Assembly: GCA_008632985.1 (NCBI GenBank)
Contig: QPGO01000041.1
Location: forward strand, 1-64,000
DNA: 64,000 bases
Direction of reading: 5' to 3'
Source: Psammoneis japonica
Lineage: Eukaryota
The notes below the pieces were generated by a model, which worked only from the letters and a program-made list of their open reading frames with translations, did not search any database and was not told the origin of the DNA. This document shows, one piece after another, positions 803 to 24,289 of this stretch. The first letter of the stretch is position 1, and each line of letters opens with the position of its first letter. Made by a program: the position numbers and the translations under genes.

Positions 803-1222
803 ATGTCAAATGTTCCCGGTGTCGCTAGCTCTCTTGCCGTGGGGGTTTGTCTGCTACTGATTATGTACAGTTTACGGTACATCATCTTACTTGCAGGATT
901 TCTTCTTTTTGCCTTTGCATACTACTCTGGAGAGATTGAAAGGGAGAAGGAAGAAGAAGAATTATCAAGGCTTGCAGCGAGGAATGCGTTTCGCGTACCA
1001 CGCCACCCCACCTATTCTAGCACTTATGCCGCCACGCGAATCACAGCAATCTGGGGGAAGTCTCCAGCCAGCTGCTGGCTGAAAAAAGTCTGCTCGTCAG
1101 TGCGTTTGGGGGTTTTGCAAGTACAATTTTTACGTACGCTAAAGAAAACGAGTCTGTCCAGCGTTCACCAAAACCCCCTAACGCACAGATCGACAGACTC
1201 TTTCAGTACAAATCCTACATAA
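803..1222 (+). CDS. Small hypothetical membrane protein, interrupted at 1052 by a MITE (possible pseudogene)
   Basis: ATG 803, two hydrophobic segments then a charged stretch; the ORF runs into the MITE TIR, so its 3' part is element-derived. Confidence 0.35.
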   Translation: MSNVPGVASSLAVGVCLLLIMYSLRYIILLAGFLLFAFAYYSGEIEREKEEEELSRLAARNAFRVPRHPTYSSTYAATRITAIWGKSPASCWLKKVCSSVRLGVLQVQFLRTLKKTSLSSVHQNPLTHRSTDSFSTNPT

Positions 1223-1259
1223 AATTCTTCAGCCAGCAGCTGGCTGGAGACTTCCCCCA
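1052..1259. mobile_element. MITE (208 bp), perfect 32-bp TIRs, 4-bp TSD AATC
   Basis: TGGGGGAAGTCTCCAGCCAGCTGCTGGCTGAA at 1052-1083 and its exact reverse complement at 1228-1259; AATC at 1048-1051 and 1260-1263. Confidence 0.92.
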
Positions 1260-1563
1260 AATCCAAGAAACAACCACGACCATCTCAAGCACAAGCACGC
1301 CACGAGGAGGATGCAGAACTGGAGGTGCAAGAATGAAGCTCTGCGGCTACGAAGCAGTGATCGGTTGAACGTGTACTACAATAGGGAATATGACGGCTGG
1401 TATGTTGGGCGAAGCAAAATGGGATACTAGGTTGTTCTGCCATGAGCCCACTTTTGTGATGTCCGCCGTATCTTCTGTTAGTAGCCAAACATTGCGTCTT
1501 AAATTCTAATTCTTTCTTGTATCTACTGGCCGCCTGCTTGGTACTTAGGCTACACATCTTCCA

Positions 1564-2682: not shown

Positions 2683-2778
2683 TGTTTTAACAAACTTCGC
2701 TGATGGTGCTTTGGATAGACAACAGCTCCAACGAACGCCATTGCCGATGCAGAATTTTGATTCTGATGCCGAGCGGTT

Positions 2779-2987
2779 TGGGGGGCGTCTTTGGAAGTGA
2801 GATCGTCGAAGGCGGTCTGATCGCCAGTGCGTTTGGGGGTTTTCCCAGTACAATTTGTACGCACAAGAAAACACGTAGGATCTGTCCAGAGGTCCCAAAT
2901 ACCCAATCGCACTGATTGACAGACTGTTTTTGGTACAAATTCTACGTAACTTTTCTTCGACAGTCTCACTTCCGAAGACGTCCCCCA
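2779..2987. mobile_element. MITE (209 bp), 33-bp imperfect TIRs, 4-bp TSD GGTT; same family as 1052-1259
   Basis: Left TGGGGGGCGTCTTTGGAAGTGAGATCGTCGAAG vs right revcomp TGGGGGACGTCTTCGGAAGTGAGACTGTCGAAG; GGTT at 2775-2778 and 2988-2991; interior shares CAGTGCGTTTGGGGGTTTT...AGTACAATTT...TCTGTCCAG...GACAGACT...GTACAAAT with the first copy. Confidence 0.9.
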
Positions 2988-3159
2988 GGTTGGATTGGTG
3001 GCAGCAGCTTTCTACGTAATATTTGTTTAGAAACTTACATACGAGAGACGTCGTATCTCTCTACAGAGTATCCTTCAGAGTCTGTCTGTGTCCCGTTTGA
3101 ATCTCTCCGAGATTTATTTTTGGAACAGTTGTTGAGTTTATTTTTGAAAAAGCATCTCA

Positions 3160-6100
3160 CATGAATTGGGGGGATTTTCCTCTTTCCTTGCCATTTTTCA
3201 GCTCACCACCGGAGTGCAGCTCACAACCTGCTAGAGGATCACTCACTCGCTTTTCAAGCTGCTGCACTTTCAAGTGGTGCTTTGTGACACATCATTCTTT
3301 GACAACACAGATCGTCGTTGACCATGGTGGACATCTCCGACAAGCAAACGCTTGACACCATCATCTGTGGACAAGTGTCTGGCAAATTCTCTGTCCAAGA
3401 CCTTCACCCTAAAGAAGCAAGCATCATGCACCCATGGTTGCATCGCCTTCACACATCCTGTCCAGCCATTGCCGCTCATGTGGATGATGCTGAATGCCGC
3501 CGCTGCCTTGCGCTCCATCATGAACAAAGCAGTCAACGCTCAGCTGGAAAACAAACAAACCATGCTCAATGTGTCAAGCAAGTGGCTGTGTCACAAGTTG
3601 TTCCCAATCCTGAGCCTCATCAGAAAGATGTTGCGGACATCAACGAATTCATCTGGTGGTGACTCTGCATCAGCCCCCCACATCAACCTCAACAGAGTGA
3701 CAAAGAAGCAGTCTCACGCTGCACCCCTTGCTGTGATGATGGCTGCCATGGAGCATGGTTTCAGCTTGGCTTGGCTTTGCATTTTTGCCTGCTTGGTGCA
3801 TTCAGTGAACATTGTCAAATCAAGATGGGGGGCACGGCAAGCCACCCAAACAGCACTCTCTTGCAGCTCCACAAGGGGGAGTGTGGGGAAAGTGCCGACA
3901 CATGCTGTCATGCCCTTTGGAGTCATGAACAAGCCCACCACATGTGTCACATGGTGTGCAACTTGAAGAACAACTGGGAAAATGAAGCCAAAGTCATGGG
4001 CACCACACTTGATGACAGCGGCAGCTCCGCCACAAACATTGACGACAATTTTGGATTTGTGGAAGAAGGGTGCAACACAGGCCTGCAACATTTCAAGGCA
4101 ATCCTTTGTGTTGCCCATGCCTCTGCAACCTGTCTTGGAAACTTGAGAAACATCTGTTCTTCCCAAAGCTGGTCAAACTTGTGGGTCAGAATCTTGCAAA
4201 ACTTGGAAACCTTCCTGCACACTCCACACTTTGCAGACTGACTCAAGCACATCCATGAGCTGGTCAAGAATCATGACTTCAGTCACAAGATCAATGATGC
4301 CGAATGGGCTGATGCCCTCAACAGCAAGTTTGAAGACATCAAATCTGCCACATTGTCTGAGCCACTGCTCCATCAAGTTGATGGCAAAAAAAGTGACCAC
4401 ACCTGCATGCCGACTTTTCAGGGTGGGGGGTGGGGCATGCACTGCTCAAGCCAGGAGACACAAAGCATCATTGGCAGCTGTGGAAAGAGAAGATGCAGGT
4501 TGGAAGTGTGAACTCAACATGCCCCCATCTAGCCTGCACCTCTTTCCATGCACATTTGGCTCACAACAGTGCAAAGGCATCAAGCGATGCCTCCACTCCT
4601 GTGTTGGAGAGGGAGCAGCCCTCAGATGGGGCGATTCACAAAAGTCCTGCACAGTTCATGGCCATTTGCCAACATCAAAGACTGCCATGGGCTGCATTGG
4701 ATTGCATGCCATGAAGGCTGCAATCCTGCCATTGTCTCATTGCAAATGGAGCTGGCATCATGGCAGTTCACTGTCGCCCATCAACCCACTGGCACTCTCA
4801 TCAATGCCAACTGCTTCTCTCAATGCAGCCAAGAAGTTGACTTGGTCCCACGACCCACTGCCAGCTGAGCATGTCTCCACAGCACAAGAGCAACTGGCAC
4901 CAGATCTTCCAGCAGCCACACAGGTCAAACCCAAGAATGTGCCCCACTTTTGTTGTGATGCAAAATCTGCCAAGTCAGAGAATGTTGCCACCACAGTCCC
5001 CACAAACCTGTCCAATCCAAGTGAAGTGGAAGAAGCACCACTCGGAAAACCTGCTGAGCCAGTTGCTCTCCACCCATGTTTCAGCACCATGAAATCATCA
5101 TTTCAACTGGTGAGCCACAATTTGGCACTGCATTGTTTCTCATTCAGCAACTTCTTCTCATCATGCAAAGACCATCAGATTCATTGACAGTTGTCATTGC
5201 TGCCAACTGTGACATGTTTAGTCAAAAAATGTTGTGCAAGACATCAGACAAGACCCTGTCATCTTGTCATCAGCAGCCCATCTCCTGAGTGAACCACATC
5301 AAGTGCAGCACCACACAGGAGCTTGAAGGGAGCCATGTGACGCCACCAGATCCAGCCAGTGCATCTTCTCAGCTGCAATTTGCTCAGACTCAAGCAACCA
5401 TCATTTGTGAATCGCAGCACTGGTGGTGCCACCTTGGTGCTTTGCACTGCAAGCCTCCTCCATGTTCAAGCACACTGTCTTGTCTCAATTTTGCAAATCC
5501 TGAATGAACCACATCAAGTGCAGCACCACACAGGAGCTTGAAGGGAGCCATGTGACGCCACCAGATCCAGCCAGTGCATCTTCTCAGCTGCAATTTGCTC
5601 AGACTCAAGCAACCATCATTTGTGAATTGTGCTGGTCGCACCACCTTGGTGCTTTGCACTGCAAGCCTCCTCCATGTTCAAGCGCACTGTCTTGTCTCAA
5701 TTTTACAAATCCTGCATGACAGAAGGATGGCACATCACAGAGGATCACATCAAATGCACAACAACAGGTGATGCTGTTGATCACTCCACCTCATTCATGA
5801 TTGGACTTTGCACAGGTGTCACAGGGGAGAAAGTTTCTGTTGACATCCTTTGACCAACCCCAACAAAACCATCCATTGTGCTGCTTGACACCCTTGCAAA
5901 CCCTTCAACTCCAAAAGCTTTGGGACATCTGCTCTGCCTGATGCCACAAATGCTGAAGCCAATGATGACAAGTTTGCCCTGGAGACTGTCAATCCCATCC
6001 AACCACCATCCCTGCTTGAACTGTGATGATGGGACAGCCAATCAAGAAGGGTCCCTGACCCTCCAATCTGTGCAGTGTGGAGGTGTGTGGTGTGGGTCAT

Positions 6101-9100
6101 CCAGCTCCAGCCACTGGCTCAGTCAACAACAACGCACATTCAGTCACCTGTTTGACACCCTTTGTCATCAAGATGAAGAATCAAAACCCAAATTTGCTGC
6201 ATCTCTGCTTGTGAGTGTGTGTCTTGTTGGGATTTGGAGAGTGCAACCTCACATGCAAGTCATGTGCAGACACATGTCACCTCAATTTGTTGGCAAGTGG
6301 CACACTGAAAAAAGCAGCCGCACAACTGACTGACACACAGCTGTCATCGGTCAAGCTCATTGACACATTCACAGGAAAAAGCTCCAGCCACAACTGCTCA
6401 AGCACATTTCCCAATGGCTCAACATCAACCCATCTTCCAAGTCATTGAACTTGGATCCAGGAACACTGTCAAGATCCTGTGACAAAAAGCATGATGGGCA
6501 TGCACCAATCTCATCTGACCTGTCCTCAACCAACAAAAAGACAACTTGCAGAAGATGCACTTCTGCTGTGAGCAACCCACGCATGCAGGAAATGTCATCA
6601 TCAACAATGATGCACTCATTCTCCACAAATCAGTTGACTCTGCAGGAAATTTTGCAAAGCTTTGAATCACACCAGCCTCTCTTCAGAATGTTGTCTTTGT
6701 TGCATTCAACACAAAACCCACAGGCAGTCATTTCAGCATGTGCTGCACTTTCCATGACCTTGTCAAACTCCAGCACTGTTGACCCAACATGTGTGAGCAC
6801 ATCACAGACTGGATCAGCAAATGCCAAGGATGCACACTGGCCAGTGCATGACACCAGAAGAAATGTGAGCTCGTGCACTCCTTTTTGGTTGATGAAGTGC
6901 TCAAACTCATCCATGTGGATGTGCAGCACAATGTTGGACATCAACAGGGGTTTCATCAAGGTGAAAAATGTCACATGGATGTGGTTGATGGCCTGAGCAC
7001 ATTTGCAGCATCCAAGAAAGTCCAAGGCAAAGTCAATGCCAACAGTTTCAGAAGAGCCATCATGAAAATTCTCCGGAGCCATGGCCTCTGCCATGCTGTC
7101 ATCATCAACAAAAACTCCAAGTTCTGTGGAGCATTCATTCAGGCTGTGTCTCCCTGGCAGGACTTGACCTCCATCAAACATCAGGAGGCAACTGTGACCT
7201 GGTGTTGACCAAATGTTGTCACATGCTCCTCAACAAATCCCTCCAAATGTTCTGCACTGAACAAGACTCAGTCCACACTGGTGCCAAAGGTGTCCACCTT
7301 GCAGCACATGCATGGAGAAGTGCTGCCCCAGTTGTTGGCACTGACTCACCAAGCTGACTCCCAGAGCTGCTGTTGGTTACAACCATCAGTTCCCATTCAA
7401 ACTGCGCCAATTCAAAGCATGTCAATCTTCAGCCAATGTGACAAGCAATTGCACAATCTCCTCTCCAAATGTCAAGAAGCACTCAAAATCCTCATCCAAG
7501 AGCATCAAGCCATGTGCCATGAGCACATCAGCAGCAATCACCTGGATCCACTGGTGCACTCTGTGTTGGACACTTTGTTTTAGTTCAACAAGCCATCAAA
7601 TCAGATGCCCAACACAGACAAATCAACAAAATTGTGTTTGGCCACACTGGTCCATGGAAAATCATTGAAAGGATTCCAGGAGCCTTGCATTGCATCCATC
7701 GCTGCAGCAGGACCAAAGCAGAGGACAAAAGGCATGCTTCTCACATTTCCCCATGCCCTCTGGAGCCAGCTCCTTTCCCTCCTTTTGCAGGACCAGACAA
7801 CTCCTGTGGACACATCAACAGAGCAATCAAAAAGAAGCACCCTTTTCTGGAAGCTGGCATTGACTCCCACATGCCACTCCAACCCTGAAAACTTGCTGAT
7901 CTGAGCAGTGCACCACCATCCCAGTCCTTGCCATGTCTCTGGCAAACATGGCGTGCATTGGATCTGCTGTGCACTTTCCAACACTTGCTGATTGTGATGA
8001 CAAAGAATTTGATGGGGTGCACACTGAAGATGAGCTCTTGCCAGCAGCAACAGATCATTGCAAACCTTCATTGAATCCTGTTTTCATTGAGACACTTGAA
8101 GGCATCAATTTGAGCACAAAAAACAGTGTGGATTTGACTGGCCCTCAGTCCATGATTGGACTGTTGCCTGCACACTGCACAGCAAAACTGCAAACTGTCC
8201 CAGTTGGTGCCAAATCCAAATCACAGCTCATGTCTTGCATTGTCTGGAGCAAGCACGCAGAGCATTCTTCATCTGCAAATGATTGAGATTTCAAATTTTT
8301 CACAAAACTTGTCAAAACACAACAACAGCGGCAACCACAAATGCAACGTGCTCCATCAATGACCACAAACTCACCATGACAATGACATGTGTTGATGGCT
8401 TGCAATCAACTTCACATGCACATGCCTTGCTGTGCTTTGAAATTGATTGAGTGCTGTGAAAACAGCTGAGATGGTGGTGTTCAATGTTTTGCCCATCACT
8501 TTTTGACCACACAAGTCAACAACAAGCCCGCTGTGCTCTCACATGTCAATTCTGCCATGCACAAGTTCACAAGATGTGATGTTGATTGTTGCAGCTCTGG
8601 AAGGCAACACAGTTGAGAAAACAGTGACCACAGAGTGGTCGCCATGGTGGGGTGGTTTCCAGGAATTTCTGGCTGTGGCAAACCAACGGCAAATTCACAC
8701 CAAACTGAGTCATGTGCCCACCATTGCCAGTGGCAGGGCTGGCAGCAACAACAAATCATGACTTGGCAGGAAAAAACAACTGAGCTTCTCAGAGGGCAAA
8801 ATTTGTGTTGAACTCTTCATGCAACATCCACACAATGTCCAGCTCAATGCTTCAAACCAGACTTTTTGGAAAGAATGTCACAAACTCAATGGACAATTTG
8901 CCCTCCATGACAATTTTCATCTGCTCAAAACACCTCCCAACAAGTGCCAGCAAAAAGCACCTCATCATCTTCTTGCAATGGGCCCATGTTGTTGATCATG
9001 CAGATGTGTGCCTCCACTGCAGACCCTTCAATTTTGCCATGATCAATGGCCAGCAGATGATGCATGGTGTCAAGCAAGTGTCCTCCAAAGAATGAGCATC

Positions 9101-9300
9101 TTGTCAACATTGTCTCAGCAATGCAAGAACAAACCCCTAAGCAAGCAGCCATCCCATCCACAATTCTCACATCACATGAATGCACAGCAACAAACTGACC
9201 ATTGGGGCCCCACCACAGAAGCCCACGCATCTGCTGTCCTTGCTCATGAGTGTGTGCACAACTGTTGAATGTTGAGCTGTCACAAGCCATCGCACTTGAA
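3160..9300 (+). mobile_element. Degenerate Ty3/Gypsy LTR-retrotransposon pol (RT-RNaseH-[MTase-like]-integrase), heavily mutated
   Basis: Frameshifted remnants in Gypsy order: INLNRVTKK and MPFGVMN..., NIDD (RT, ~3650-4050); HSCVGEGAALRWG, WQFTVAHQP (RNaseH, ~4570-4830); LIHVDV, VVDGLSTF, VIINKNSKF (integrase core, ~6900-7150); GHTGPWKII (GPY/F motif, ~7640). Boundaries approximate, LTRs not identified. Confidence 0.8.
5290..5720. repeat. Tandem duplication, ~216-bp unit x2, inside the Gypsy element
   Basis: GAACCACATCAAGTGCAGCACCACACAGGAGC... at 5291 and 5507, near-identical. Confidence 0.92.
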
Positions 9301-10429
9301 AGCTGAGCTCTCAAACAATTGGTGAGCTCTGAATGAACTCCCACATCTCTCAAAATCTTGTCTTTCTCAAATTTCATTTCGTCAGTCAAATTCAGTGCTG
9401 ATTTGGTGCCAAAACCATGCCCCAGCAAGCCCAAAATGGGTGCCCCAAATTTTTTTCTTTTTCAATCAATGCCCTTCAGGTTTTTGTGACCATGCTTTTC
9501 CTCCTGGCCTGTCACATCCTTTTTCAATGTCCCCATGGTGCTCTCTCTGCTCTTCTTTTTAACACTGTTTGGGAGGCATTGTGAAAATTTTGTGGGGAAA
9601 AGGGCAGAAATGAAACAGTGCTGTTTGCAAATGTGCCAATTTGTGGAAAAACGCTCAAATGGCTTGAGGGCAAAGAGTGAAGCTGAGAGCTGCCTCACCA
9701 TGCAAACAATGCAACAATGGCCAAAATGCCGCCATTCATTGAAGGCAATGGAGGAGGTGGAGAGGCACCCAGGCCTGTTCCAGCTCCAGGTGCTCCGCTT
9801 TTCATCACGCTGGATTTTCTGTGCAGTTTTCAGCACCAGACATTTTTGTCTCCACCCGGCAGAGCTTGCACTTTTTGGCTTTTTGTGAACATCAATTGTT
9901 TGAATGACGCAACATGTTTGTCATGTCAGTGCTCATCTGCAGCAACTGAGGTGCATGTTGTGTCACAGGAAGAATCGTGTCAGTTGGCATTTAATGTTTT
10001 TCTGGCGATGCGCAGAACAATGCTGACTTCTGTGAACACGTGCCGTCCACCCAACACACACACCAGCCATGATGCAGCACACCACTGTCACCACTCCACA
10101 ACCCCCTCTTCTGCTCCTTTCATTTCAAAGTTGTGTCATTGTTGTCACAACACGATTGCAGCTCTAAGGAGCAGCTGTTGTTGCAGACAACACCATCTCT
10201 TCATGTTCCCTTGTTTCAAATTCGGCAAGTTGATTCATCGTGTTTTTTTTGCACGTCACCGTGCGCGTGCATTTTTCTCGTTGCTTCTCACGTCTCGTTT
10301 TATGGTTGTTTTGCACCAGGGCCTTCAGAATTTCTACAAAACTCAAGTGTTCCCCCGAACATTCTCCAAGTGACAGTTGCCACTGGAACAAACTTGTCTT
10401 GGTTTGTTTTCACTGTGATGCTTGCTGTT

Positions 10430-10670
10430 TGCACTTTTCAGCATCTGGAGCTGCCTCAGAGGCTGCCTCTGTTCATCTGCATCACTTTTGCGGTGACTGA
10501 TGTTGGCCCCATCTCTGGAGTGCATTTGTCATGCAAGCGGGAGTGCAGCTTGCTGTTTGATGCTTTCCAGCATCTGGAATTGCCTTGGAGGCTGCCTCTG
10601 TTCATCTGTGTCACTTTTGCGGTGGCTGATGTTGCCCCCCCTCTCTGGAGTGCATTTGTCGTGCACAAAC
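10430..10670. repeat. Tandem duplication, ~130-bp unit x2
   Basis: CAGCATCTGGA...GAGGCTGCCTCTGTTCATCTG...TCACTTTTGCGGTG...CTCTGGAGTGCATTTGTC at ~10439 and ~10568. Confidence 0.85.
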
Positions 10671-10689
10671 AGGAGTGCAAAAGCAATGC

Positions 10690-13600
10690 AGTTGCCATGG
10701 ACATGTTGGCCAAAGCAGCCTCCCAGCAGCGTCCCATTGGCGGCAGTTCCCCTCAAGCAAACGATGACTCTTCCAGCACATTGAAGGTTTCCTTTTGCAT
10801 CCAGCATTGCATCAAGGCACTCAAGGAACATTGCCCGCCACAGGGCAAAGCCAAAACTTGGTGCACTGTGCCTCTTCAAGATGCAGTTGATCCCCTTGCG
10901 TGCCCTCAAGGTCTTGCAGATTTGAGCGTCTTGACCACGGAAGATTGTGGAGCCAAGAAGATGAGCCCTCTCTTTCATGTTCTTCATCACAAGAATGGCT
11001 TCAATGGGCCCCAACAGTGCCAAAACACGGAACATGTTCCGCAACACTGTTGTTGGCTGGTTTTGTAAAAAAAATTTGATGCTGAGAATCGACTGCAACC
11101 AAACCAATGCATCAAGGACAAGAACCAGCACCTCTTGATGTTGGTTGTGGTGCCATCAGGAATGTCAATGAGGGATGCCATGAAGGACAAGCAAAACATT
11201 GCCGCTGTTTTGATGCACCGTGTCATGACAAACATTGGCCTGCTTGTTGATTGCATCCTCCGTGTGACAGAGTCTCAGGTTGTGGAGGTTGGGATGGGCA
11301 ATGAGAGACTGTTGATTGCACCATCAAGTCAAGGTGTTTGTCCTTTTTTGACTGGACTTGCCCAAGCCATTTGCTGTGGTGTTGTCAAGAAGATGGATGC
11401 ACACCTTCATTGTCAGAAGACATTGAAGTCTCATCACATGGGAGAGATGGGTTTGAGGACATCATGGACACCATGAGCAATCGTTCCAACCTGGCGAATG
11501 TCCACAAGCACTGGGAGTGGGGTCATCTCATGCAGAATGACAGAGGCAACACTGTTGCCCTGTGTGCAAAGGAGACGGTTGCTCCAATGGGCTCTGCAAT
11601 TGTTTTGGCATTGTGCCTCGCTCCAGCCCAGAGTGTCAGAATGTCGCAACAGAGATTTGCAGCAATGAAGACTGTTGGGAGCAACCACTCAATGAAGGAG
11701 GATGCACCGCTGATCATTCGTGCAATGCCAAGCACCAATTCCACAAGGCATCTTTGGTCAACATTCAAAACCTGGAAACGTGCGATGACAAAAAGTTGAC
11801 CAAAGATTTGAGGATCCATGTGTGGCTGCCTTTTGACAATGTCATGCACAAAAGTTGGTGGCAAATTGAGTCTCCAAAGGGAATGAAGAACCATTTTGAA
11901 ATGTTGGCTTTGAAGGGGTTGCATGTCAAGCTCCACTGTGAAACAAGACATCCCGTTTTATCTGCAAAACAGCACTGGGGTTCAATCTGCAACCATCGCT
12001 CTGTTCAAAACGAAATCGCTCAGAGGAAGCAGGTGGATGAAAAGCTGCGTCGAAAACCATGCATCAGCCATAAGAAGTTGAAGAAGGCCAATGTGGACGA
12101 CAGCAACGATTGTGTTTTTCATGACAAGTGTCACAAAAGGGAGAAGCTTGAACAGTCAGACGATGACATGGAGGAAGATCCCCACATTGCCAAACTTCCC
12201 ACCAACATAAAATGCAAAGTGCTCACAAGTTGCATGATTGGCTGCCGGAAGGTTTTCTCATTTGGGCCATGTGACCCCAATGAGACACTGCCATCCGAGG
12301 CATTGTTTGACATTGTTGCAGGTTGGTGGCACAACCATGTGTTGCAGATTGACACTGGTGGTGAGTGCAAAGGCTGTCAGTGTCCGCCGGACAAGCGGTG
12401 CAAGCCTCTCAAGCCGCAACAATGCTCCGAGTCAGTGGAGGCCATCACCAAAGACAAGCACATCTTTGAAGTTCACTTCCCCACCGGACCAAGCAGGAAG
12501 GACTGCTGCAAAGAGCCGCTTGCTCACCTTGCTGATTGGTGCAAGGCAGCTCCAGGACTTGCATGGCACAAGTTTTGCAGAAGGATTCATTGCCATCATC
12601 ACATGGATCACGCCAGTGTCTGTGATGCAAGGATGAAAGAGTTCAAGGAGGAAAAGGAAGAGGGAAAGGAGGGCACTGAAGCAATGGATGACCTGCAAAA
12701 GGCCAAGGCTGGCACTCAAGGTTGCAACTGCGAGACAAAAACCAGGAGGAGGAAGATGGGGCCATGGATCAATCAACTGAGGAAGAGGAGGAAGATGATG
12801 GTGTGCAAGATGAAATCCAGGAGAAGCAAGATCCAGGTTGGTCCATGGATGAATCGACTGAGGACGAGGAGGAAGATGATGCCAGGAAGAAGTTTCTGAA
12901 GCCAAGGCTGCAGAAGACTTGGCACTTGGAGACACAAAGGTGGAGAAGAGGGAGAGAGTGGGAGACGCTGCATGCAGACGTGCAAAACAGCTCATGAAAG
13001 ACACAACTGGAGCACAAAAGGATGAGGATCTCATTGGCCTTTGCAGCTCCAGGCCAAAACCAAGGGCAAAAGGAGCCACTTCATGGCATTGGTTGAGCAA
13101 AGAGCAGCAACACCAAGAAGAAAGGGATCAAGTTGAGTGTGAGCACAAAGACACTCAAGTGATGTTGTGGGCTAAAAAACTCATTTGGATTGATCCAAGT
13201 TCATGGAACAGCAGGCATCAGCATCCTTGCAATTCCAAAGGAGCTGTTCCTCACTTGTTTGGTTTTTTGCTTTGAAGGAAAAAACGAGGGCGTCATGTTG
13301 TGGGAAAATTGGTTTGATGTGCGATGCAATGAAATGAATGGCCATCCCATGAACATGTGTGCAGCCCTCATCACACATGCCAAACACAAACCAAACGTTC
13401 CCTGCCAACTCAATCAAAAATGCAGAAACAAGATTTAGGACAAGGTGGAGTCAATTTGCAACCCACCACAGATTGCCAAACTGAAGAGATTGGCTGAAGC
13501 AGAGATTCAAAACCTTCCACCTGTTGGGCAGGGAGCTGATTTCATTGGCCACAGCTTGGAGGGGAACCGTCCTGTGCATGTAACCCTGGATTGGGCTGAG

Positions 13601-14290
13601 TGCAATTTCAAGTTTCGGTTTGTAGATGTGTGGAAAGATTTGAAAGAATTGAAGCCATCGGATGGTTGTCACTCCTTGCCGGAAGGAAACGTGTTGATGC
13701 CATTGAACAGTGACTTGCCAATGAGCGCCCACCTGTGAAATTCCTGCAAGGACAAAATGACACTTGCATTTTTTCCTCCCTGGCCAGTGTTCTTGATTGT
13801 GCTGGCAACGTGGAAATGAGAGACTGCATTGCTTCTCACATTCAAACATCTGCCAACTGTGCCGACACTGACAACAAGTGCACGTTGTTTGCAAAGCACA
13901 TGTTGAATGGTTGTTTGAAGGGAAAATTCCTGCCTGCAAACTCAAACATCAAGTTTTGTGGCAGTGTGGATTGAACGATTTCCTTGGAAGCGGGTGGTGA
14001 ATTTGATGTGACAACCTGGCAATGATGACTTCATGACTTTGTGCCATCTTGTGAACAACCACTGCATTGCCTTGCACCATGGTTGGATCTTTGATTCCAA
14101 CCACCCTTTTGCATTGCCAGCAAAGGACATTGGGTGCTTGAACTGTTGTCTTGGGAACAAGGAACATGAGGTGGAGTGCGTGGCAAAAAAGCATCTGCAA
14201 CAAGTGTTCATGGTGTGCCAGTTTGAGCTTCCTGGGGTGGTGCAGCAGCAGTTGTGTGGAAAAAGGAAAGCTTTTGTGTTGGATGGTTAA
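10690..14290 (+). pseudogene. Long degenerate transposon-associated ORF with C-terminal papain/C39-like cysteine peptidase motifs
   Basis: Frameshifted ORF pieces (11562-12899, 13445-13738 etc.), acidic repeat ~12740-12890; KFLQGQNDTCIFSSLASVL (Q...C) at ~13738 and NHCIALHHGWIFDSN (H...D) at ~14057. Confidence 0.5.
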
Positions 14291-17200
14291 TCTGGTTGCA
14301 CAATGTAAAGTGACAATCACATTGTTTGTTTGTTTTCCCATTGCCATTTTGTTCATCCAACTCATCACTGTCACTGTCCCCTGCTGCGCTCTTGTCATCC
14401 TTTGCAGTGTTCTCCTTGTTGTCATTCTCTCCCTCCCACTCATCAGCTTCACTGTCATGTTCCTCCACCTTGTCTGAACAGTCCTCAAAATGATCCATTG
14501 CCTCCCGCTGTCGGATGGCATCCAGAATTCCTTCATGCTCATCATCACTCAAATGACGTGGATCAAGAAGTGAAGCCTCACTCCTGTTGCATGCACTTGG
14601 CAGTTCCAGAGTGGCCGATGGTTCATTGAGCTCAATGTTGGCAATTGCAATTTGCTTGAGCAACACTCTTGTCTTGCATTCCTCAGCATCACCGGGAGTG
14701 TGCCATCCTCTGGCCCTTGGAACAGGGTCAAGATGCGTTCCCTCACAAACCCATTCACCGGCCTCAACAGTTGTGGGTGGGTCAAACTCTTTCCACACCT
14801 TGTCCTCCTGTGCCTTGTGGGGGAGTTCATCCCATTGCAGCAGATAAAAGCCCTCCTCAGATTCACAAGACAATGTGGCGCAGCTGTTTGGAACAACTTC
14901 CTTGGCCATTTCCTCAGTCAGGAAGTCCAACACAGATTTGTGAACCAACTGCACCTTGTCGGTGTCACTCTTGTCTGTTTGAATCACCTGGCACACTTGC
15001 CAGTTGTTCAGTCCCTCAAAGATGGGCCACAGTTTGCAAGCTCGGTTGCCACCTGCATGTTGTGGCTGCTCTGTTGGCTCAACATTTTTCACCCAAGGCC
15101 GTTTGAGCTGATCCAGCCAGGCTTCACAAGCACAAGGAATTCTTTGCATGGCAACCCAACCAATGGGGAAAAGAGGTTCAAATCAGATGTGGTGCAAGGC
15201 TCCAATGCCACAATGGCATGTGCACACTTGCATCAATCCAATCAACTTGACTTTGATTAAAGAGCCAAGAACTTCATCAGCTTCCTGCAGACAACACACC
15301 CTTTCTGTTGACTTTTGAAGGGATTCCCTCTTGGCATGTTTCCTGTCACCAACTGCGCCAAGAGCATTCTTTTTCTTTGTGTCTGTTTTGTGACATTCCT
15401 TGGCACAACTGTGCATGGCTGCAACACTGTTGTCATCCATGACCAAAGCTTTAGGTCTGATTTTCCCATCCTCATCATTGACTCCTGCAACAGTTGTGGA
15501 CTGCATTTCTCAATGCATGGGTGATTTGATGCAGGCTCCAATGCCATCAACCTCTCCTTTGCCATGTCCAGGTGCTCCAATGGCAGGTCAAACACAATGT
15601 TGCATTTGTGCACAACCACAGACAACAAGTGCAGTGCCAAAGCACATCGGCGCTGTTTGGCACAACCATTGGTGTGATCCCAAATCACAAGCCACGTCTC
15701 ACACAAGTTGTGGTTTTTTAACCATGTGACAAACTTTTCCAAGTGAGCATGGGTGGTGGTGGCATCTTGCTTGGAAGAGTCAGAGAGATGTGCATGATGT
15801 GTTTTCTGAAGCACATTGTCAACCATTGCATCACAAACTCTTCCTTCAATTGACAATGTTCAATTGTTGCCACAATGATCACCCTGAACTTGTTTGTTGA
15901 ACTCTGCCTTCTGATGCTCGGAGCAATCATGAGACATGAACAGGCTGTTGGGCATTGACTCAAATGCTTTGCGGCACATTTCCATGCAATGATTTTTCCC
16001 AAGAATGGCCATGTGGGGAAGGTGGCAGTGCAGCTTTTTTAAACTTGGGATGTGGTGCTCTTTGCAAAGACCCTGACTGGTTTGCGGAACCTTGTCAACA
16101 AGGTCCTTCGTTTGACGTTTGCATCCTTGTTCCCATCTGGATCTGCCTCACAAAAAGGACATGCTTCCATGTGCACACCATGCTTGGAACAACTTTTTGC
16201 AGTCAAGCACACTGAAACAAAACTTGGGGTGCACTGGGACTTTCATTCTGTTCCAACAACAGAGTTGGATGGGATGGGCATGCTTGCATTCACCCAAAAC
16301 GCATTTCCAATGAGGATGATCCTGACCATTGACATTGCCACAAATGATGGTTGCAACTGCATCTAGAGCTTTGGGATGAAGGTGATGGCCACTGGGGCCA
16401 AACGCTTCCTCTTGACAGCCACGCATTGTTTCCTCCAATTTGCCAAGGGCACTGTCACAGTTCTCCAAGTTCTCAGGATCCTCGCTCGCAAGCTTCGCCT
16501 GATTTTGTTCCACCTCCATCTCTTTTAAAAGCTTCCTTCGAAACCTGTTCAACGCATCTTGTGGAAAATTTGCATTGGTGCAATTGCTGCATTGACACAT
16601 GCTGCATTGACTTGCACTCATTTTTCAACACTGCTTGGGAATCAAAAAACAAAACATCGTGCCACTGATGAGGGTCTTGCCACTGGCATCACGTGCATGT
16701 TTGAATCCACCAAGAGACACAGGCTTCAACATGTCATTGTGGAGCTCACGCATGGACACATTGTGCAACCATTTGTTTGCTCATTTTTTGTTTCCATCTT
16801 CATCTTTAATGACAATCATGTCTCGTGTGTTGGGAGGCTGCACCATGTCAGGATGATTCAACAACCAGCGCACAAATGCACCGCGGATCTCAGGGAAACT
16901 TTGTGAGGATGTCGACGGGGTTGCACTGAAGACTGCACAACATCGTCAGTGTTTGAAATCAAGGCCTCTCTGGCAATCTTTCCCTGCTTCATTTGGTGAC
17001 AAACAGTGCTTCGTTTCAGGCCAAGTGCATTGGCGTAGTCACAGGAAGACAATTTTTCCTCATCACCAGGTTTGTTTTCTGGTGAACCAGAGATTCCAGT
17101 TTCCAGAGCACGGACAAATGATTTTTTGTCATCGGCGGGGTGTTGACCATTGCTGGTGTTGTTGGCACATGCCAACATTTTGGCCAACTGCTGGGTCATT

Positions 17201-17600
17201 TGCAAGGCCACAGAATTTGTTTTTGGCAGTGTCAAATTGCAAGCCTGAGCACATGGGGCTAACTTGGGAAAATGCAAAGCGCACACAAAGGCACAGATTT
17301 GTTGTTCTTGAGTGGCGGCACAAGACAACACTCCTTCTCTTGCTTTGACCACTGCACAATGAAGTGCCTGTTGGGGATCTTTGTGGTGTCTGCACACGTC
17401 CCCAGTGTGTGTGCATTTGTCCGTCACTTTTTTCACCCTGTTGCCCCAGTCCATTCAGATGTGTCATCCGGTTTTGTGCGTGGCACGGATCTCTTCACAA
17501 TTGTCCAAACTGCAGGTCCAAAGTCTGTCCTCTGGGGCTTGCAACGCCATCAGACAAAACTGTCATGGTCAAAACAGCACACACTCACTTGCACTCATTT
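14290..17600 (-). mobile_element. Degenerate DDD-type DNA transposase, Sola-like
   Basis: Minus-strand remnants FMSHDCSEHQKAEFNKQVQGDH...LSIEG (~15940-15840), KQDATTTHAHL, IWDHTNGCAKQRRC (cf. DGCAxQY), AIGAPGHGKGEVDGI (15580-15540). Superfamily assignment is from motif memory. Confidence 0.65.
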
Positions 17601-20489
17601 GAACAGAAAAGTTTTGTCATTTGTGTTGGTGTTCTTCACAATTGAAAATTTTGTTTAAATGCGGCAATCGTGCAAAACCACATGGGTGCAGAAAAAGTTA
17701 AAACATCAGTCATTTTTGATGCTTTCAACAAACACATGTAAAAAAAAACAAGGGTTTTCCCACCCTTTGGGTGGTTTGAGATGAAAATGGCTGTGGGGAT
17801 TTTTTTCTGGTGTGATTTCGCACATTTCTGTGCAAAATGTGGTCGCACTTTGACCTCTCCCAAGATGCCATCAAATGCTGCATTTCATTCAACCAAGTGT
17901 CCTGGTGCACCCTCAACCAGTGTCTCCTTCACTTGTTCTCAAAAAGAAGCTGGAAATTTGAGGTTCAATCATCAATGAGATGTTGCAGTTGACAAAAAAC
18001 AGTTTGCCCTGAATTTTTGAATTGGCTGCTCATGCAGATGATGGCATCAAAAGGTGCAATTTCTGTCACTCAAAAGGCAGCCAAGACAGCAAAGAAAGTG
18101 CCCACATGCTTGAGTTTTGAAGTGCCTTTCATGGCCCTTCTAAGATGATGCAGAGAAAGACAAGAGGTGACAAATGAGCAACACATTTGTGATCACATGT
18201 GTGCAGACCCATTGTTGGTTTGCTGATGAAACACAGTGCTTTTGTCTGATGGCTGATTTCTGACTCCTGTGATTCTCAATGAAAGTGCACGCAGAAATGA
18301 TTTTCACAATTTTTGTCTTGCACCACCTCAAAACAGCAGTCAAAAGAGAACCTGGCACACTTCATCCACAGAAGCTGCTCAAGAGCCAAGCACATGCATT
18401 CCCACACAGCAGCCTCAGCACAGAAAAAAGGAAAGCACCACATTCCACAAAATGACTCACAACTCACAACAATGCTGCCAGATCACACAATGCATTAAAA
18501 TGGTGTCATTCATTGTCATCATTCAAAGGGCCAAGGAAAGCTCACAAGCACTCTCTTGTGGCTGAACACTGCAAACAAGAAAGATGTGTTTTTGTTGCAC
18601 AATCCCAGAATGAAACAGATTGTCAAAAGAGGCATGTGCGCATGTTGGCTGCAATGGCCAAATTAGGCGCCAGTCACTCTAGAACATCAATGGAGGCTTG
18701 ATGCCCCAATGAAATAAATCTGCTGTCCCACAATCTTGTGCATGCAGCACACGGTTGTCAGATTGTGCAGGTGTGTGTGCATCATGTGTGAGGTGCAAGC
18801 AGGCAGAATCACTGCTGAAAAAGTTGTCAGGTGGCAGATTTTTGCCAGTGCACCATCTGCAGGCTCTGCAGGGAAGACAAATTTGTGTTTGTTCCTGAGG
18901 CTTGTTTTGGACAACACAAAAGATTCTTGTGCTTTTAATGTGTGTGCACATGGCTGCTAAAAAATCTGACAGAGCACCCCTGTCAACGGTCTAAACAGGG
19001 TTGTTGTAAAGCGCTTCTCAAAATGTCTTCATCAGGCTGGACACAAGAAAGAATCTGCTGTCACCAAAACAGATTCTCTGCAAGCCAAATGGAGGGCACC
19101 CATCCTTCATGCACAAACAGCAGCCCACAACAGCAGCGCCTGACAACACCATGGCAAGCAATGCAAGACCTGTTCACTGGTCTGCCAGCCAGCATTTCCA
19201 GACAAGATCAAAGCAGTTGGAGTCTGACAACATTTGTGCACTGCATTCCTGGGTCAAGTTGGGTTTCTTCTCATTGCTTGTTGTCCTGTCAACGTTTTGA
19301 CCCACACGGTGTTTTTTTTTGCTTGAAACTTCTGCTCACAAGCCACCGCCACTGACAGCTTTTCCTGCAGGACATGGCCAGTTGCACAATCACATTGAAC
19401 CCAAATGTGCGTGACCAGCTGGCCCTGCCCTGGCTGGCTCACAAACAACAAAGCTTGCTCCAGAGCTCTTCTTGTTGGCACGAACTCTCCAGCTGCTTTT
19501 GAGGCTTGACTTGCCCTGCCTTTGTGCATGAAACATCAGCTGCTCTCCTTTTCACTCTCTAATTTTGTTGCACTGGCTGACAACAATGCAGGCAAATGAG
19601 CCACACATTGTTTCCAGCTTGCAAACTGCCTCACAGAATGAAGAAACAATCTGTGCCTCCACAATTGCCACAATGCATTTTTCTGTCAAGTGAAGCTCTG
19701 CATCACCCAAATCTGAGCTGTCAAGAGCTCAAGCATGATCTTCAGACACAATGGACACAATCTCCCACTTTGACTGTGAAGCCACCCTGACGCTGCAACT
19801 GTGACCCAGACTTGTCGTCAGACTGCCGTGGCCACTGCCGTGCAGTGCAATTGATGTCCCAAGCAAGCACTTCTTTCTCAGGTGTGGCTCATGGCAAGGG
19901 AAACCCTGCAGAACAAAACAACAATGAGGAAAGACAACATGTGTGTGCATGTCGAAACAATGTGAATGCACAAGCACTCAATGAAGTGCAAAGCATGATG
20001 GTGGCTGGTGCACAAGTTGCAATGTGATGCAGCAAAGAAATCAGCAATGTCAGTGCCAATCTTCAATTCAAAATTTTGCCATGATCCACCCACATGCATG
20101 AACCTGAACATGCTTCTCAAGCTTGTCTTGCATCTCATGATGCAATGCACCAAATGCTGTTGAGAGTGTGCAGGTTTCAACCTCAGAGATGATCGCATTT
20201 TTCAAGTCAGTGAAGCACCGTTGTTCATCATGTCATTTTTCATGTCATTTTGAGCCACAAGCCAGAAAACACTCCCAAAAGCTGTTCTGGCAAAATGCAC
20301 TGAATCCACACAGACTGGGCCACACAGAAAGTGAGAGGGCCAAAAACTCTGGTGTGCCAACTTGGGGCTAGATCGGTTTTTTTGCGAGCACGCAATTTTT
20401 GAAAAGAACCCAGACGCATCACACCAAATGTGTTTGCCAAAAAATTTTCAGCAGTGGGTCGAACTTTGTCCATTTGGTGCCAGAGACAT

Positions 20490-21280
20490 CATGGAATGCA
20501 CAAATGACAGTTGAAACCATGATGCACACCAGCTCCAGCAGGTTGGACCTTGCACCGCTGCACTGTGACACAAAGAGTTTTTTGGGATTGTGCCTCATGT
20601 TGCACACACACCATTCTGCATGTGATTTTCTGCCAAACAGTTTCATGCTCCCTGTCTTGTGAAGCCAAAGGCTTTCCATTTTCCACATTTGTGAAAATGA
20701 AAAATGGGCTGGGTGCATTCTTTAAAATGTCTGAAGAGTGCACCTGGGAAAACTGAAAATGATGCACTTCAAGTGTGGAGGAGGAGTTGCATTTGCAAAA
20801 TTCTTGTCTCTTTTTCTGCTGGCAATCATTCACATGTTCATTGCTCAACAATTTCACTGTGACACTTGCAGGAGCTCCACCTCTGGCACTGGAATGCACC
20901 ACTTGTGTGATCTTTGGCTTGACAACTGCAGACATGCTGCTGCCCACAGCAAGATGCGTTCCAGATCTGGGTGGGACCTCGTGCCACTGGACTGTGACAC
21001 AATTGTTTTTTTGTCATCCATCGCATGTTTCACATGCACATTTCTGCATGTTCCATTGTGAAAAATTGTTCCACACTGCCTGTTTTGTGAAGCCAAAGGC
21101 TTTCTGTTTTCTGCATTTGTGACAATGAAAATGCACTGGGCATGTCCTTTAATGTCTGAAGAACATGCCCGGGCATGCTGTCAACAATGTGCTTCAAGTG
21201 TGGAGGAGGAGATGCGTTCACAAAATTGCCTCTTTTTCTGTTGGCAATCATTCACATTTTCATTGCTCAACAATTTTACT
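20490..21280. repeat. Diverged tandem duplication, ~430-bp unit x2
   Basis: GTGAAGCCAAAGGCTTTC...AATGTCTGAAGA...CTTCAAGTGTGGAGGAGGAG...TGGCAATCATTCACAT at ~20659 and ~21088. Confidence 0.8.
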
Positions 21281-23049
21281 GCGGAGCTCCCACGTGGAAT
21301 TCTACGGGCCCAATGTCACAAAAAGTCCCGCCTGGGACTGGAACGCGTCGCAAGTCAAATGCCAGCTGTCAGCATTTTCTGGAAAGTTGTGGCTTGTGGC
21401 TTGTCTCCCACAAACAGCGAAAGTGTGTCCCTTGGATTTTGGAACGGCATGGGTTCTTCAGTGCAAATGAATTGTTCGGATTTGAAGAATGATCATTGAG
21501 GACATCAGAGGTCATGGGGACATCCTAAAAAATCAACAAATTCCCTGCGATGGATACGTGGAACGGTTTTTCAGGAGAGCTCGAAAGTGCTGTAAAGTTG
21601 GGATTGCCAGCATGGCATGTTGAAAAATGTGCCGAGCTTTGAACAAAGACAATTTGTTGTGAATTCTACACAAGACAGTCACATTGAAAAAACACATTGA
21701 ACAATGAGTGGTTTGTGCGATGCACCAAAGAGTGTCCGTGCACCTTGCCACAGCCCCAAAAACAGCGTGAGCCATCAAACATGACAGCAATCTGCATCAC
21801 CGGTGCAGTGGCCAGCAAGCCACCTGCCCCACTCTAGCCACCCTCTGCCACATGCTGCACAGTGCATGCAACATGTGCCAGCCCCGGCAGTGGGGCCCTG
21901 CTGCACTTGCGCACACACAGGCAGCACAGCATTCAATGGCACACACCCACACCCACAAAGATGGACAAGTGGTCAATGCTCCCCGCAGGCCTTGTTTTGG
22001 TGAGAAACAGCAGTTTTTTGAAAAATGCAACAACTGTGCCAAATCTGACAGCTGGGGGTGTTCGCGCATGTGCAGCCAACACGCGACCTTGAGAATCCAG
22101 TCAAAGCCCAGACAAGCTCTCAAAATTGCTCAATCCACCAGCAGAAAAAAACCTGCAATTCTGTGTGCACACTTCAATGTGTTTTTTTTCCCCAAACATT
22201 GCACTTGGGTGTCCAGAATCATTCTCCTGCGCAGCTCAAAGCGCAAATTGCACAGGGAAAACCCGGATGTGGGCACTTTTTGGACACTCCTGGACACAAG
22301 GACAAAGGTCCATCAGTCCCGATGGGGGCTGGACACACTCACAAGAGTTTGGGGGTGCTCAGAGGCATTGCAAAATGATGTGGGCCAACTGCAGATGGAA
22401 CAAACAGGTGTCAGACACCAGTTTCCGAGCATTTTGCTGGCAAAGTGGTTGTGCAGCAATTTCGCACAATTTCAAAAAAGAGATGAGGTTGAATCAAAAA
22501 ATTGCCACAGATGCTTGCAAAAGTGCAACACAACACGAGAAGCAACAATGACATCCATGTGGGGATGAAACAACATCCACACCAATTTGAGGCATGCATG
22601 CATGACAACACAAATGTGACAAATTTTTGATTGATGCACCATTTGGCTCACTCTGTCTGTCTGAGTGCTCCAATCGACCATTTGAGATGACGCCATTGTC
22701 GTCAATGTTCTGCATGGTTGTTGCACGCAATTCACACAGAAAATTGCAAAAATGGCTGGCCAACAATGACGCCCTGAATTCAACTGCAACCTGCATGCAC
22801 GGTCGATGTGGGCACATGTTTGCACTTGTCACTCACCAAACGACACGTCTGGTGCATTCGTCACATGCACAATTGATTGATGGCATCACCGGTGGCACGC
22901 CATTGTCAGCATTGAATGCCGCACAAAAAGCACGGGGACAACAGAAATCGACTCTTCTGTCACATTTGTCTGTCTGTCACCCGTTTGTCTCGTAGAATCT
23001 GTGTGAAAGTTCCTGCACTTTACAGTCTGTCCATGCTTCATCTGACAAC

Positions 23050-23827
23050 TGTTCATTCCTCTGTGCATGACAACCATTTGTTCTGCGTGCAGCAAAGTGC
23101 AGGAAAAGAGAAAAAATGCAAGCCAGCCAAAGGGAGAACCAGTGCATCCGCGAGCAGCAAGTTTCTTTTCCAAGGACTTGACGTGGCTGTTGAAAGCCTT
23201 GATGTTTTGACCATCAACTGCAGCCATGCAAGCATCTGGGTTGCCCATTTGGTCACAGATTGAGCCTTGAGGAAGGCTGCACTGCATTCTTTGTCTCCAA
23301 CAGTGCACTGAGCTTTTTCTTCCATTGCCGTGATGGTCTTGGAGGGCTCGTCTGGGGTGCTCTGGAGCCATGCAAGGAGTTGGCAGTTGTTCTGCACATT
23401 GTGTTGTGCCAGATTGAGGCGTGCAGCAGATGCAGTGTGAATCTGCTCTGCTGAAATTTGTCCATGCTTGGTGAGCATGTCCTTGTTCTCTGCCAGCAAA
23501 GCAGGAGCTGCGCCGTGGTTGATGTTGATCGTGAGAACCTCGTTCCAACCATTGGCTTTGGAACGGACCGTGAGTTCTTCCAGTGGGAAGATTGGGATGT
23601 CAGGTGATTCAAGACCAAACTGGGTGTCCGTCCAATGGCTTGGTCACGTCTTCGAAAACGAGCACGTCACCTTTCTTGGTGTGGCCCAGAACGTTGGCAC
23701 TGGCCAGCACTGGTGACTTGGCGAAAGGTCCTGGAGCAGCTGCTGCTGGCATGTTGTTCACAATCAGTTGGACAGCTGCCTGGACAGCTTGAGTGATGGC
23801 TTGAGCGAGCACGTTGGCATCCGCCAT
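23050..23827 (-). mobile_element. Ty1/Copia (diatom CoDi-type) gag 5' fragment, degenerate
   Basis: ATG 23827: MADANVLAQAITQAVQAA...FAKSPVLASANVLGHTKK...TKPL; NGWNEVLTINI; DMLTKHGQISAEQI...QNNCQLLAWLQS, resembling CoDi gag with Y replaced by H/C. Confidence 0.65.
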
Positions 23828-24289
23828 GATGAGGTCTTGAAATTCCTGAACACGTCTTTCTGCTCCTCTTGTCAAACGGCGCATCTTGTTGGTTCGGAGA
23901 GAACATTGCTGGTTCGATTGAGAACACTTTATCGCAGAAGAAGCGTGTGAGCTAACAGTTTAATTAGAACTGAACGGACAACTAGCCTTGTGATGAACAC
24001 AGACGAACTAATGTGATCACTTTGAATCTGAAAAGGTGAGAAGAGAGATGTCTCAATTAAGTGTTTTCGGATAAATGTTTGAGATGTCTTTAACAGTTTG
24101 TGGGCCATACGAGTAAACAATTTGGGGCCATAGAATAGAAATCGAATGTCGATAAACGGTTGTCGTAGATGTCGTGAGGCACGAACAAGTAAGCGTCAAT
24201 GTTAGTCACAGACTCGAAGGTGGAAGTCGCAAAAAGCCGCCGACAAGCGACAAGTTCTGGTGGCTCTCAAAGCTGGTGTGCCTTTCAAC

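Follow-up and report, generated by a model that had tools for sequence, protein, structure and literature searches.

TpA-erased blocks in a Psammoneis japonica contig point to TpA-specific hypermutation of integrated mobile or foreign DNA

RESULTS

Four blocks of the window are nearly free of TpA

The DNA analyzed here, which we call the window, is a 64-kb stretch from Psammoneis japonica (positions 1 to 64,000 of contig QPGO01000041.1, assembly GCA_008632985.1); the window and the contigs of one public sequencing run, X1, form the evidence base of this study. Besides host genes, the window contains four blocks of DNA in which the dinucleotide 5′-TA-3′ (TpA, or TA) is nearly absent. Block 1 had been described in an initial annotation of the window as a TA-poor region at 3145–23925; blocks 2–4 carry the same signature beyond those coordinates (Table 1). 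The four blocks together amount to about 31.8 of the 64 kb.

Dinucleotides were counted over whole regions and scanned in 1-kb windows, with positions 43000–62500 (19.5 kb) as the host reference. Across 4001–23000 the ratio of observed to expected TA (o/e) is 0.00–0.12, or 0–8 TA per kb, whereas the host-like parts show 0.41–0.94, or 29–75 TA per kb. The core of block 1 (3200–23850; 20,651 bp) holds 58 TA against 1413 expected by base composition, which is 4% of expectation, and the gain in TG and CA matches the loss: in block 1, TG reaches o/e values of 1.6–2.2 and CA values of 1.6–2.0. The longest run without TA is 1,673 bp in block 1 and 190 bp in the host reference. CpG is depleted in block 1 as well (o/e 0.07–0.5), a feature that the initial annotation did not stress.

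The edges of block 1 are abrupt. On the left, dense TA ends at 3139 and is followed near the edge only by TA at 3232 and 3410; on the right, TA at 23021 is followed by the next at 23930. The TA-based edges (3140–23929) agree closely with the coordinates given earlier, and the reported depletion proved real in the sliding windows. Counted on both strands and per kb, TAT is 0.17 in block 1 versus 10.98 in the host, TAC 0.41 versus 10.83, TAA 1.43 versus 8.66 and TAG 0.80 versus 8.58; TGA (26.5 versus 18.1), TGT (29.9 versus 17.4), TGC (33.4 versus 19.2), CAT (28.1 versus 17.5) and CAC (26.8 versus 13.5) are all raised in block 1. These counts bear out the earlier remarks that translations of block 1 have almost no Tyr but many Cys and His and that its stops are nearly all TGA; the four motif strings singled out at that time are present at 7640–7657 (+), 4594–4611 (+), 23377–23394 (−) and 23455–23472 (−). 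The stops are nearly all TGA, and long spurious open reading frames (ORFs) are many, because TAA can become only TGA or CAA.

Blocks 2 and 3 are separated by a TA-normal, host-like island (39906–41278), which serves as an in-place negative control. Of its 14 bins of 100 bp, 13 hold 4–14 TA each and the 40300 bin holds 1; its edges are sharp on the 100-bp scale, and the transitions from block to host DNA are completed within about 100 bp. The island could be either long-standing intergenic sequence of the host or an insertion of very recent date. It also holds a 78-nt inverted repeat (40156–40233 and 41065–41142, 98.7% complementary) and, near 39950–40070, short TA-rich direct motifs. Block 3 is truncated by a 351-N gap (42591–42941), beyond which the composition is host-like; past the gap, a gene for an ABC transporter begins near 43000.

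Table 1. Coordinates of the blocks and of the features found within or between them. fTA, fCG and fTG+CA, frequencies of the dinucleotides; GC, G+C content; TIR, terminal inverted repeat; n/a, not applicable.
Feature	Position	Strand	Remarks
Block 1, TA-erased, CpG-poor mobile or foreign DNA (probable)	3140–23929	n/a	fTA 0.0028, fCG 0.0144, fTG+CA 0.230; edges are TA positions
Single-copy part of block 1	3567–9569	n/a	X1 depth; without Pfam domain
High-copy part of block 1	9570–17573	n/a	summed X1 contig depth 1,050–3,420, single copy being about 55–62
High-copy part of block 1	20242–22899	n/a	X1 depth 1,087–3,363; 20909–21575, 40,780
Block 2, TA-erased, CpG partly lost	31176–39859	n/a	fTA 0.0066, fCG 0.040, GC 0.50
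DNA transposon with 108-nt TIRs (32284–32391 and 37748–37855)	32284–37855	+	TIRs 95% complementary
Transposase-like gene	33054–35890	+	homology in two frames; one frameshift near 34620
181-bp tandem array, 4 copies, right end of block 2	38936–39652	n/a	copies 67–92% identical to reference copy
TA-normal host-like island between blocks 2 and 3 (in-place negative control)	39906–41278	n/a	TA counts per 100 bp
Block 3, TA-erased, abuts assembly gap 42591–42941	41279–42590	n/a	fTA 0.0054, fCG 0.017
Block 4, TA erased, CpG at host level, ends with the window	62748–64000	n/a	63000–64000: fTA 0.005, fCG 0.057, GC 0.53

TA was converted to TG or CA

Added together, the pyrimidine-purine steps TA, CG, TG and CA have a frequency of 0.233–0.251 in the blocks and 0.237–0.245 in the host, and all other dinucleotide classes are unchanged between the two; therefore, the change consists of transitions only. 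The G+C content shifts in the way expected from such a change: it is 0.53 in block 4, where TA was lost alone, 0.50 in block 2, where CpG was partly lost, and 0.477 in block 1, where both were lost; it is lower in block 1 because the loss of CpG cancels the G+C gained through the loss of TA.

Paralogous sequences within the blocks carry the same mark. Eight such comparisons, three of which lie in one array and are not independent, gave 26 TG↔CA double changes, 20 CG↔TG/CA single changes and 4 TA↔TG/CA single changes, in addition to 35 other transitions and 59 transversions. The array concerned consists of 181-bp units in tandem. Its copies 2 and 3 mismatch at 15 columns, every one of which belongs to one of 6 TG↔CA doubles, 2 CG singles or a lone TA single. 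Over its 717 bp the array has 40 CG, which is the host level, but only 2 TA; since its CpG is intact, the doubles found there must stem from ancestral TA, resolved separately in each copy after the copies had been duplicated side by side. An inverted repeat (38329–38467 and 39750–39887, 88%) flanks the array. In block 1, the two copies of an internal 320-bp duplication (20541–20859 and 20970–21281) differ by 9 TG↔CA doubles. Together with the base composition and the protein comparison below, these footprints show the polarity of the change, from TA to TG or CA.

A transposon in block 2 has lost conserved tyrosines

The only element that could be defined in the blocks is located in block 2, outside the region of the initial annotation. 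This 5.6-kb element is a DNA transposon with TIRs; it encodes a protein of about 1,000 residues that looks like the transposase of an unnamed superfamily. Of the 5 mismatch columns between its TIRs, 3 are CG↔TG/CA singles and 1 is a TG↔CA double. An exhaustive search with its transposase-like gene recovered 107 representative homologues at E ≤ 0.001 (best E 1.9e-40), typically 1,000–1,140 residues in length, whereas a word-indexed search had found none; tblastn of the homologues spans 33054–35890 in two frames with no internal stop. No Pfam model covers the family, the sole hit being a weak match to DUF6589 in 4 of the 17 members tested; a profile search against PDB sequences gave no meaningful solved relative, and a metagenome scan with the block 2 protein gave no relative.

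Tyr makes up 3 of the 1074 residues encoded by the gene; in contrast, none of the 107 homologues falls below 1.25% Tyr, and their median is 3.0%. Eight alignment columns have Tyr in at least 55% of 45 homologues; there, the copy in the window carries Cys five times and His, Tyr and Phe once each. Over the 12 columns with Tyr as the plurality residue (≥40%), it carries Cys at 5, His at 2, Tyr at 1 and other residues at four. Cys (TGY, where Y is a pyrimidine) and His (CAY) are what TAY yields when TA is converted to TG or to CA, respectively. Ile to Thr or Met, Leu to Ser or Pro and Arg to Gln were further replacements in the same comparison.

These results bear on whether the blocks could be natively poor in TA, either because selection disfavors the dinucleotide (through a TA-cutting nuclease, transposons that target TA or UA-specific RNases) or because of Pol-eta repair, which mutates WA to WG (W, A or T) and had been one of the mechanisms put forward earlier. 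A mild under-representation of TA is universal, and the o/e of the host here is itself 0.4–0.75. However, values of 0.00–0.05 over kilobases far exceed any selected depletion, and selection would neither put Cys and His at conserved Tyr positions nor leave the element's own transposase frameshifted; 107 of 107 relatives keep Tyr. Pol-eta would deplete ApA too, and this is contradicted by the summed frequency of AA and TT, 0.168 in block 1 against 0.150–0.160 in the host. We regard native avoidance or Pol-eta repair as scarcely credible.

Loss of TA depends on the base that follows

A total of 119 TA survive in the four blocks, compared with 1154 in host DNA. Relative to the host, the density of survivors is 0.29 for YTAR (R, purine), 0.089 for YTAY, 0.054 for RTAR and 0.019 for RTAY; the survivors are enriched in YTAR (Fisher p 2e-17) and poor in RTAY (p 6e-10). 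YTAR accounts for 35 of 58 survivors in block 1 and for 27 of 55 in block 2. Under a model in which the two strands are hit independently, per-strand survival is about 0.54 in the unfavored context and about 0.14 in the favored one, with a pyrimidine 3′ of the A; for the mixed classes the model predicts 0.54 × 0.14 = 0.074, and 0.089 and 0.054 were observed. By trinucleotide, the order of loss is TAT > TAC > TAG > TAA. The data thus show a preference of T-A-Y over T-A-G over T-A-A, which fits separate hits on each strand.

Among the mixed-class survivors, block 2 has 18 YTAY and 4 of the reverse-complement class RTAR, and block 1 has 9 and 13; this imbalance may mean that the mutator favors one strand with respect to the transposase-like gene on the + strand, although the numbers are small. 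For the outcomes in block 1, YTGY and RCAR exceed YCAY and RTGR (about +518 versus +409 when scaled to the host), a weak difference in the direction expected under the T-A-Y model that assumes a host-like ancestral composition.

The process acts in place and outpaces CpG decay

In the blocks, the proportion of TG among TG and CA is 0.41–0.62 per kb, so both strands are affected about equally. This near equality, the divergence of the array copies and the erasure of a DNA transposon together point to action on chromosomal DNA and on both strands; as far as a footprint can tell, the process is shown to act in place on DNA, and not on intermediates made of RNA or cDNA. Its sharp edges speak for targeting guided by sequence or chromatin rather than for regional spreading.

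Editing before integration would be a different route to the same bases: transcripts or cDNA of retroelements would be edited from A to inosine by an ADAR- or ADAT-like enzyme and then inserted, and the erasure does end exactly at insertion edges. A U at −1 is favored by ADARs and, strongly, by the sexual-stage Tad2/Tad3 mRNA editing described in fungi (PMC11087585, PMC11156358). On the other hand, the erased transposon with TIRs has no RNA intermediate, adjacent tandem copies diverged by separate TG and CA outcomes after duplication in place, both strands are equally affected, and TG↔CA doubles separate the window from X1 where the two represent the same locus. Editing of this kind is therefore very unlikely.

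The comparison with X1 also addresses the assembled bases. Logan contigs of X1 covering 3656–5319, 5654–8107 and 8421–9767 differ from the window at 10, 8 and 5 positions, respectively, and reproduce the TA-free sequence at 99.4–99.7% identity. Among 40 of the 280 difference rows, 27 positions at 3778–9680 include 3 TG↔CA doubles, which hints that erasure continued after the two sequenced versions (strains or haplotypes) had separated. A sequencing or assembly artefact, such as miscalls at modified bases or a polishing error, could be imagined since heavily modified DNA causes miscalls on some platforms and the assembly does carry the 351-N gap. It is, however, highly improbable: the X1 contigs rebuild 3656–9767 and other parts free of TA, with 5–10 differences per 1.3–2.5 kb, the change is coherent at the protein level and stops sharply at host DNA, and a hemi-modified site would be expected to yield mixed calls rather than fixed TG or CA.

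Relative to the host, about 16% of TA but about 72% of CpG remain in block 2; in block 4 about 12% of TA is left, and CpG is undiminished. Loss of TA is thus faster than CpG decay in the same elements and independent of it. These figures enter into the main alternative to direct attack on TpA, namely a modified-base route in which N6-methyladenine (6mA), or 5-hydroxymethyluracil (5hmU) in place of T, at the palindromic TpA of silenced DNA is subsequently deaminated, mispaired or misrepaired, which would turn A:T into G:C much as 5-methylcytosine leads from C to T at CpG. In dinoflagellates, 5hmU is enriched at TpA. The nearly equal share of the strands is in line with such a route, and so is the CpG decay of the blocks, itself a footprint of base modification. 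But TA is gone where CpG is untouched (block 4), so the two marks would have to be uncoupled; recognition of each strand accounts for the T-A-Y preference at least as well as a symmetric mark does; and the eukaryotic 6mA systems known to us act at ApT, not at TpA. On balance we consider the modified-base route unlikely, though not negligible.

Contents of the blocks

The repeat status of block 1 was judged from X1 contig depth alone, with contigs mapped on 2900–22899. Depth is 54–71 over 3567–9569, except for 211 in bin 8236–8902, and this part, about 6 kb, is single-copy at ≥90% identity in X1. For most of 9570–17573 and 18908–22899 the depth is about 600–3,400, and it peaks at about 40,800 in 20909–21575; the greater part of block 1 thus occurs in tens to hundreds of copies. 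A restriction of the erasure to repeats is not borne out by these depths; the signature tracks inserted DNA rather than proven repetition. The host-side bin 2900–3566 has an X1 depth of about 2,000, and several short contigs stop near 2927–2990; a short, highly repeated piece seems to lie just outside the left edge of block 1.

The elements of block 1 had been labeled Gypsy, Copia and Sola-like. These labels could not be confirmed: no Pfam transposon domain was detected among the 159 stop-to-stop ORFs of at least 70 residues (E ≤ 0.01), whose few hits were at the level of chance, nothing transposon-like appeared when 50 of these ORFs were rescanned with Pfam at E ≤ 1, and three read-through frames of 3600–8100 gave no transposon domain either. 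The ORF at 4147–5184, which carries the string HSCVGE, had no homologue in the word-indexed search, and the 70 ORFs of blocks 2–4 gave no Pfam match. By eye, frame 1 at about 6.9–7.7 kb looks like an integrase core with the GPY/F-like 'GHTGPW' after it; the resemblance has no statistical support and is not claimed. A match to an OTT_1508-like deaminase at 6428–6682 (−) (E 0.003; 17.9 bits, cut-off 27) was rejected as chance in a translation inflated in Cys and His. A metagenome scan with a 20-mer of the most abundant repeat returned one contig (L001) with no similarity to the window and normal TA (o/e 0.65), and it was dismissed as a chance match.

Host genes of the window

The host genes comprise a ribosomal L2/L8 fragment and genes for a SAP-domain protein, the primase large subunit, an ABCB transporter, a Branch-type glycosyltransferase and a BEACH protein. 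The BEACH gene, at 51519–61400 (−), is an uninterrupted ORF of 3,294 codons that encodes a PH-BEACH and a BEACH domain, and a WD40 exon comes next at 50072–51289 (−); by its domains it is a very large, nearly intron-free gene of the neurobeachin/LYST type. The glycosyltransferase has 105 homologues, the best being about 50% identical, and the named ones are all from diatoms (Thalassiosira, Cyclotella, Stephanocyclus and a name truncated to 'Dacty'); no near-identical protein was found in the collection searched. Judged by this one gene and by the long exons, the host is probably a diatom or a close relative of diatoms and not Bigelowiella.

DISCUSSION

Taken together, these observations make it probable that the blocks are integrated mobile or foreign DNA that was struck by a host-driven, TpA-specific hypermutation. 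The core of the initial annotation, a host process confined to mobile DNA in which the TpA of integrated sequence becomes TpG or CpA, whichever strand is struck, is upheld by evidence that is indirect but convergent. In the process we propose, the A of 5′-TA-3′ would be changed to G on either strand, giving TG if the top strand is struck and CA if the bottom strand is struck; the hits would repeat until almost no TA remains. The target would be DNA already in the chromosome, and erasure would halt at the edge of the inserted DNA. Genes would be disabled by missense changes (Tyr to Cys or His, Ile to Thr or Met, Leu to Ser or Pro) and not by stop codons. Targeting may operate through silencing marks or small RNAs, and the process may serve genome defense.

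Several points weigh against this proposal. What we have is a footprint, with no de novo mutation observed. A TG↔CA double could in principle derive from ancestral CpG, and this is countered only where CpG is intact; block 1 has no recognizable protein homology, so its polarity is read from composition alone. The comparison at conserved Tyr positions comprises just 8 strong columns, and the homologues are only 24–31% identical. Many of the differences between the window and X1 in block 1 are transitions outside TA or CG contexts. Finally, X1 and the assembly may share a culture or even a data set, so their agreement excludes assembly error but not every sequencing artefact.

The closest known case is that of Bigelowiella natans, where mutation-accumulation lines were followed by Mettrop et al. 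According to their preprint, 231 of 302 nuclear point mutations fell in integrated giant-virus and virophage regions, and 230 of these 231 were A→G or T→C, all 230 on TpA, at rates about 1000-fold over background in some lines only (bioRxiv 10.64898/2026.01.13.699255). The preprint further reports 124 clusters in the B. natans genome that are depleted in TpA and enriched in CpA and TpG, and TpA-depleted coding sequences enriched in the transposon Pfams reverse transcriptase and DDE endonuclease. The parallels with our window, as far as the preprint text goes, are close: the change is A:T→G:C at TpA, giving TpG or CpA depending on the strand (here by footprint only), it is limited to delimited foreign or mobile stretches, a single-copy one included, with normal host DNA next to them, and the affected clusters extend over several kb, many of their sequences being no longer annotatable. 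By this analogy, the process is of the same kind as the B. natans hypermutation, here at saturation and in a diatom-like host.

There are also differences. The host is a chlorarachniophyte (Rhizaria) in one case and diatom-like in the other; the active regions reported for B. natans retain much TpA (Rho 0.45 in the nucleocytoplasmic large DNA virus, or NCLDV, region), whereas the blocks are saturated at o/e 0.00–0.1; and de novo events were measured there, compared with a footprint alone here. The words 'context', 'flanking', 'CpG' and 'diatom' have 0 occurrences each in the preprint text, supplementary mutated-site tables aside, so that the text takes up neither a flanking-base preference nor the relation to CpG. 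The belief that nothing of this kind had been described thus does not hold in general, because of this 2026 preprint, but it stands for diatoms as far as our literature searches on diatoms and TpA depletion go, which found no description.

Repeat-induced point mutation (RIP) of fungi such as Neurospora changes C:G to T:A mainly at CpA, makes TpA and stop codons and lowers the G+C content; it needs duplicated sequence and a premeiotic stage. The present process resembles RIP in that transitions at one dinucleotide affect chromosomal mobile DNA on both strands, with sharp edges and a diagnostic dinucleotide skew. Its direction is the opposite, as had been recognized before: TpA is destroyed while TG and CA are gained, no stops are made, and the G+C content rises up to 0.53 where CpG is intact. 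As to the duplication that RIP requires, 3567–9569 is single-copy at ≥90% identity, but by our estimate independent TA and CG outcomes alone would part old copies by about 8–9%. The other familiar process, decay of CpG linked to 5-methylcytosine (5mC) in methylated transposons, has been reported for transposable elements of diatoms (PMC9998398). It likewise turns a palindromic pyrimidine-purine step into TG or CA, and it co-occurs in the blocks (CpG o/e 0.07–0.7). However, it cannot remove TA, and TA was lost without loss of CpG in block 4 and in the 181-bp array.

As to the catalyst, a DNA adenine deaminase of the TadA/ADAT2 kind, converting A to inosine that is read as G, is a tentative candidate to which we give a little less than even confidence; it would act on transiently single-stranded DNA. 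The signature does not pass the defining test of ADAR-type hyperediting of double-stranded RNA, as a transposon with TIRs and an array diverged in place are affected and AA is not depleted; ADARs are metazoan, and their 5′ neighbor preference (U>A>C>G) is loose. ADAT2/ADAT3 (Tad2/Tad3) would share with the present footprint the change of A to inosine, read as G, and a T or U directly 5′ of the edited A. Their natural tRNA substrate is A34, which follows the invariant U33. These are RNA enzymes, and their link to the blocks is that of a candidate only. Mettrop et al. also propose an ADAT2-like DNA adenine deaminase, unproven in B. natans, and according to the references cited there activity on DNA has been reported only for ADAT2 of trypanosomes and amphioxus (bioRxiv 10.64898/2026.01.13.699255).

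With the B. natans preprint at hand, the process is not categorically new; it is new in a diatom-like host, and the saturated end-state, the independence from CpG decay and the T-A-Y preference are additions to what the preprint text presents. In practical terms, the erasure explains why annotation misses many transposons of such genomes: codons for Tyr, Ile and Leu are lost, Cys and His are gained, and the loss of TAA and TAG stops leaves long spurious ORFs. It can be screened for simply in any genome by comparing the o/e of TpA with that of CpA and TpG in 1-kb windows, and it offers a relative clock for insertions, since loss of TA outpaces loss of CpG. A natural adenine-editing activity on DNA with a T-A-Y preference, if the candidate is right, would be relevant to base editing, and the mechanism is open to testing in transformable diatoms.

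Until a single 2026 preprint described it in a chlorarachniophyte, targeted hypermutation of DNA from A:T to G:C had no known natural example; its saturated footprint in a second, ecologically dominant lineage argues for a general defense against mobile DNA rather than a curiosity. A broader proposal, which we find possible but somewhat doubtful, is that diatoms, perhaps the whole SAR (stramenopile, alveolate and rhizarian) supergroup, possess a dedicated defense enzyme that deaminates adenine at 5′-T-A-Y-3′ on either strand of chromosomal DNA and is directed to transposons and viruses that have recently inserted, erasing TpA much faster than CpG decays. If this is true, it would represent a natural DNA adenine editor, the A:T→G:C mirror of fungal RIP, and B. 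natans would be one instance of an old and widespread system rather than an oddity of its lineage.

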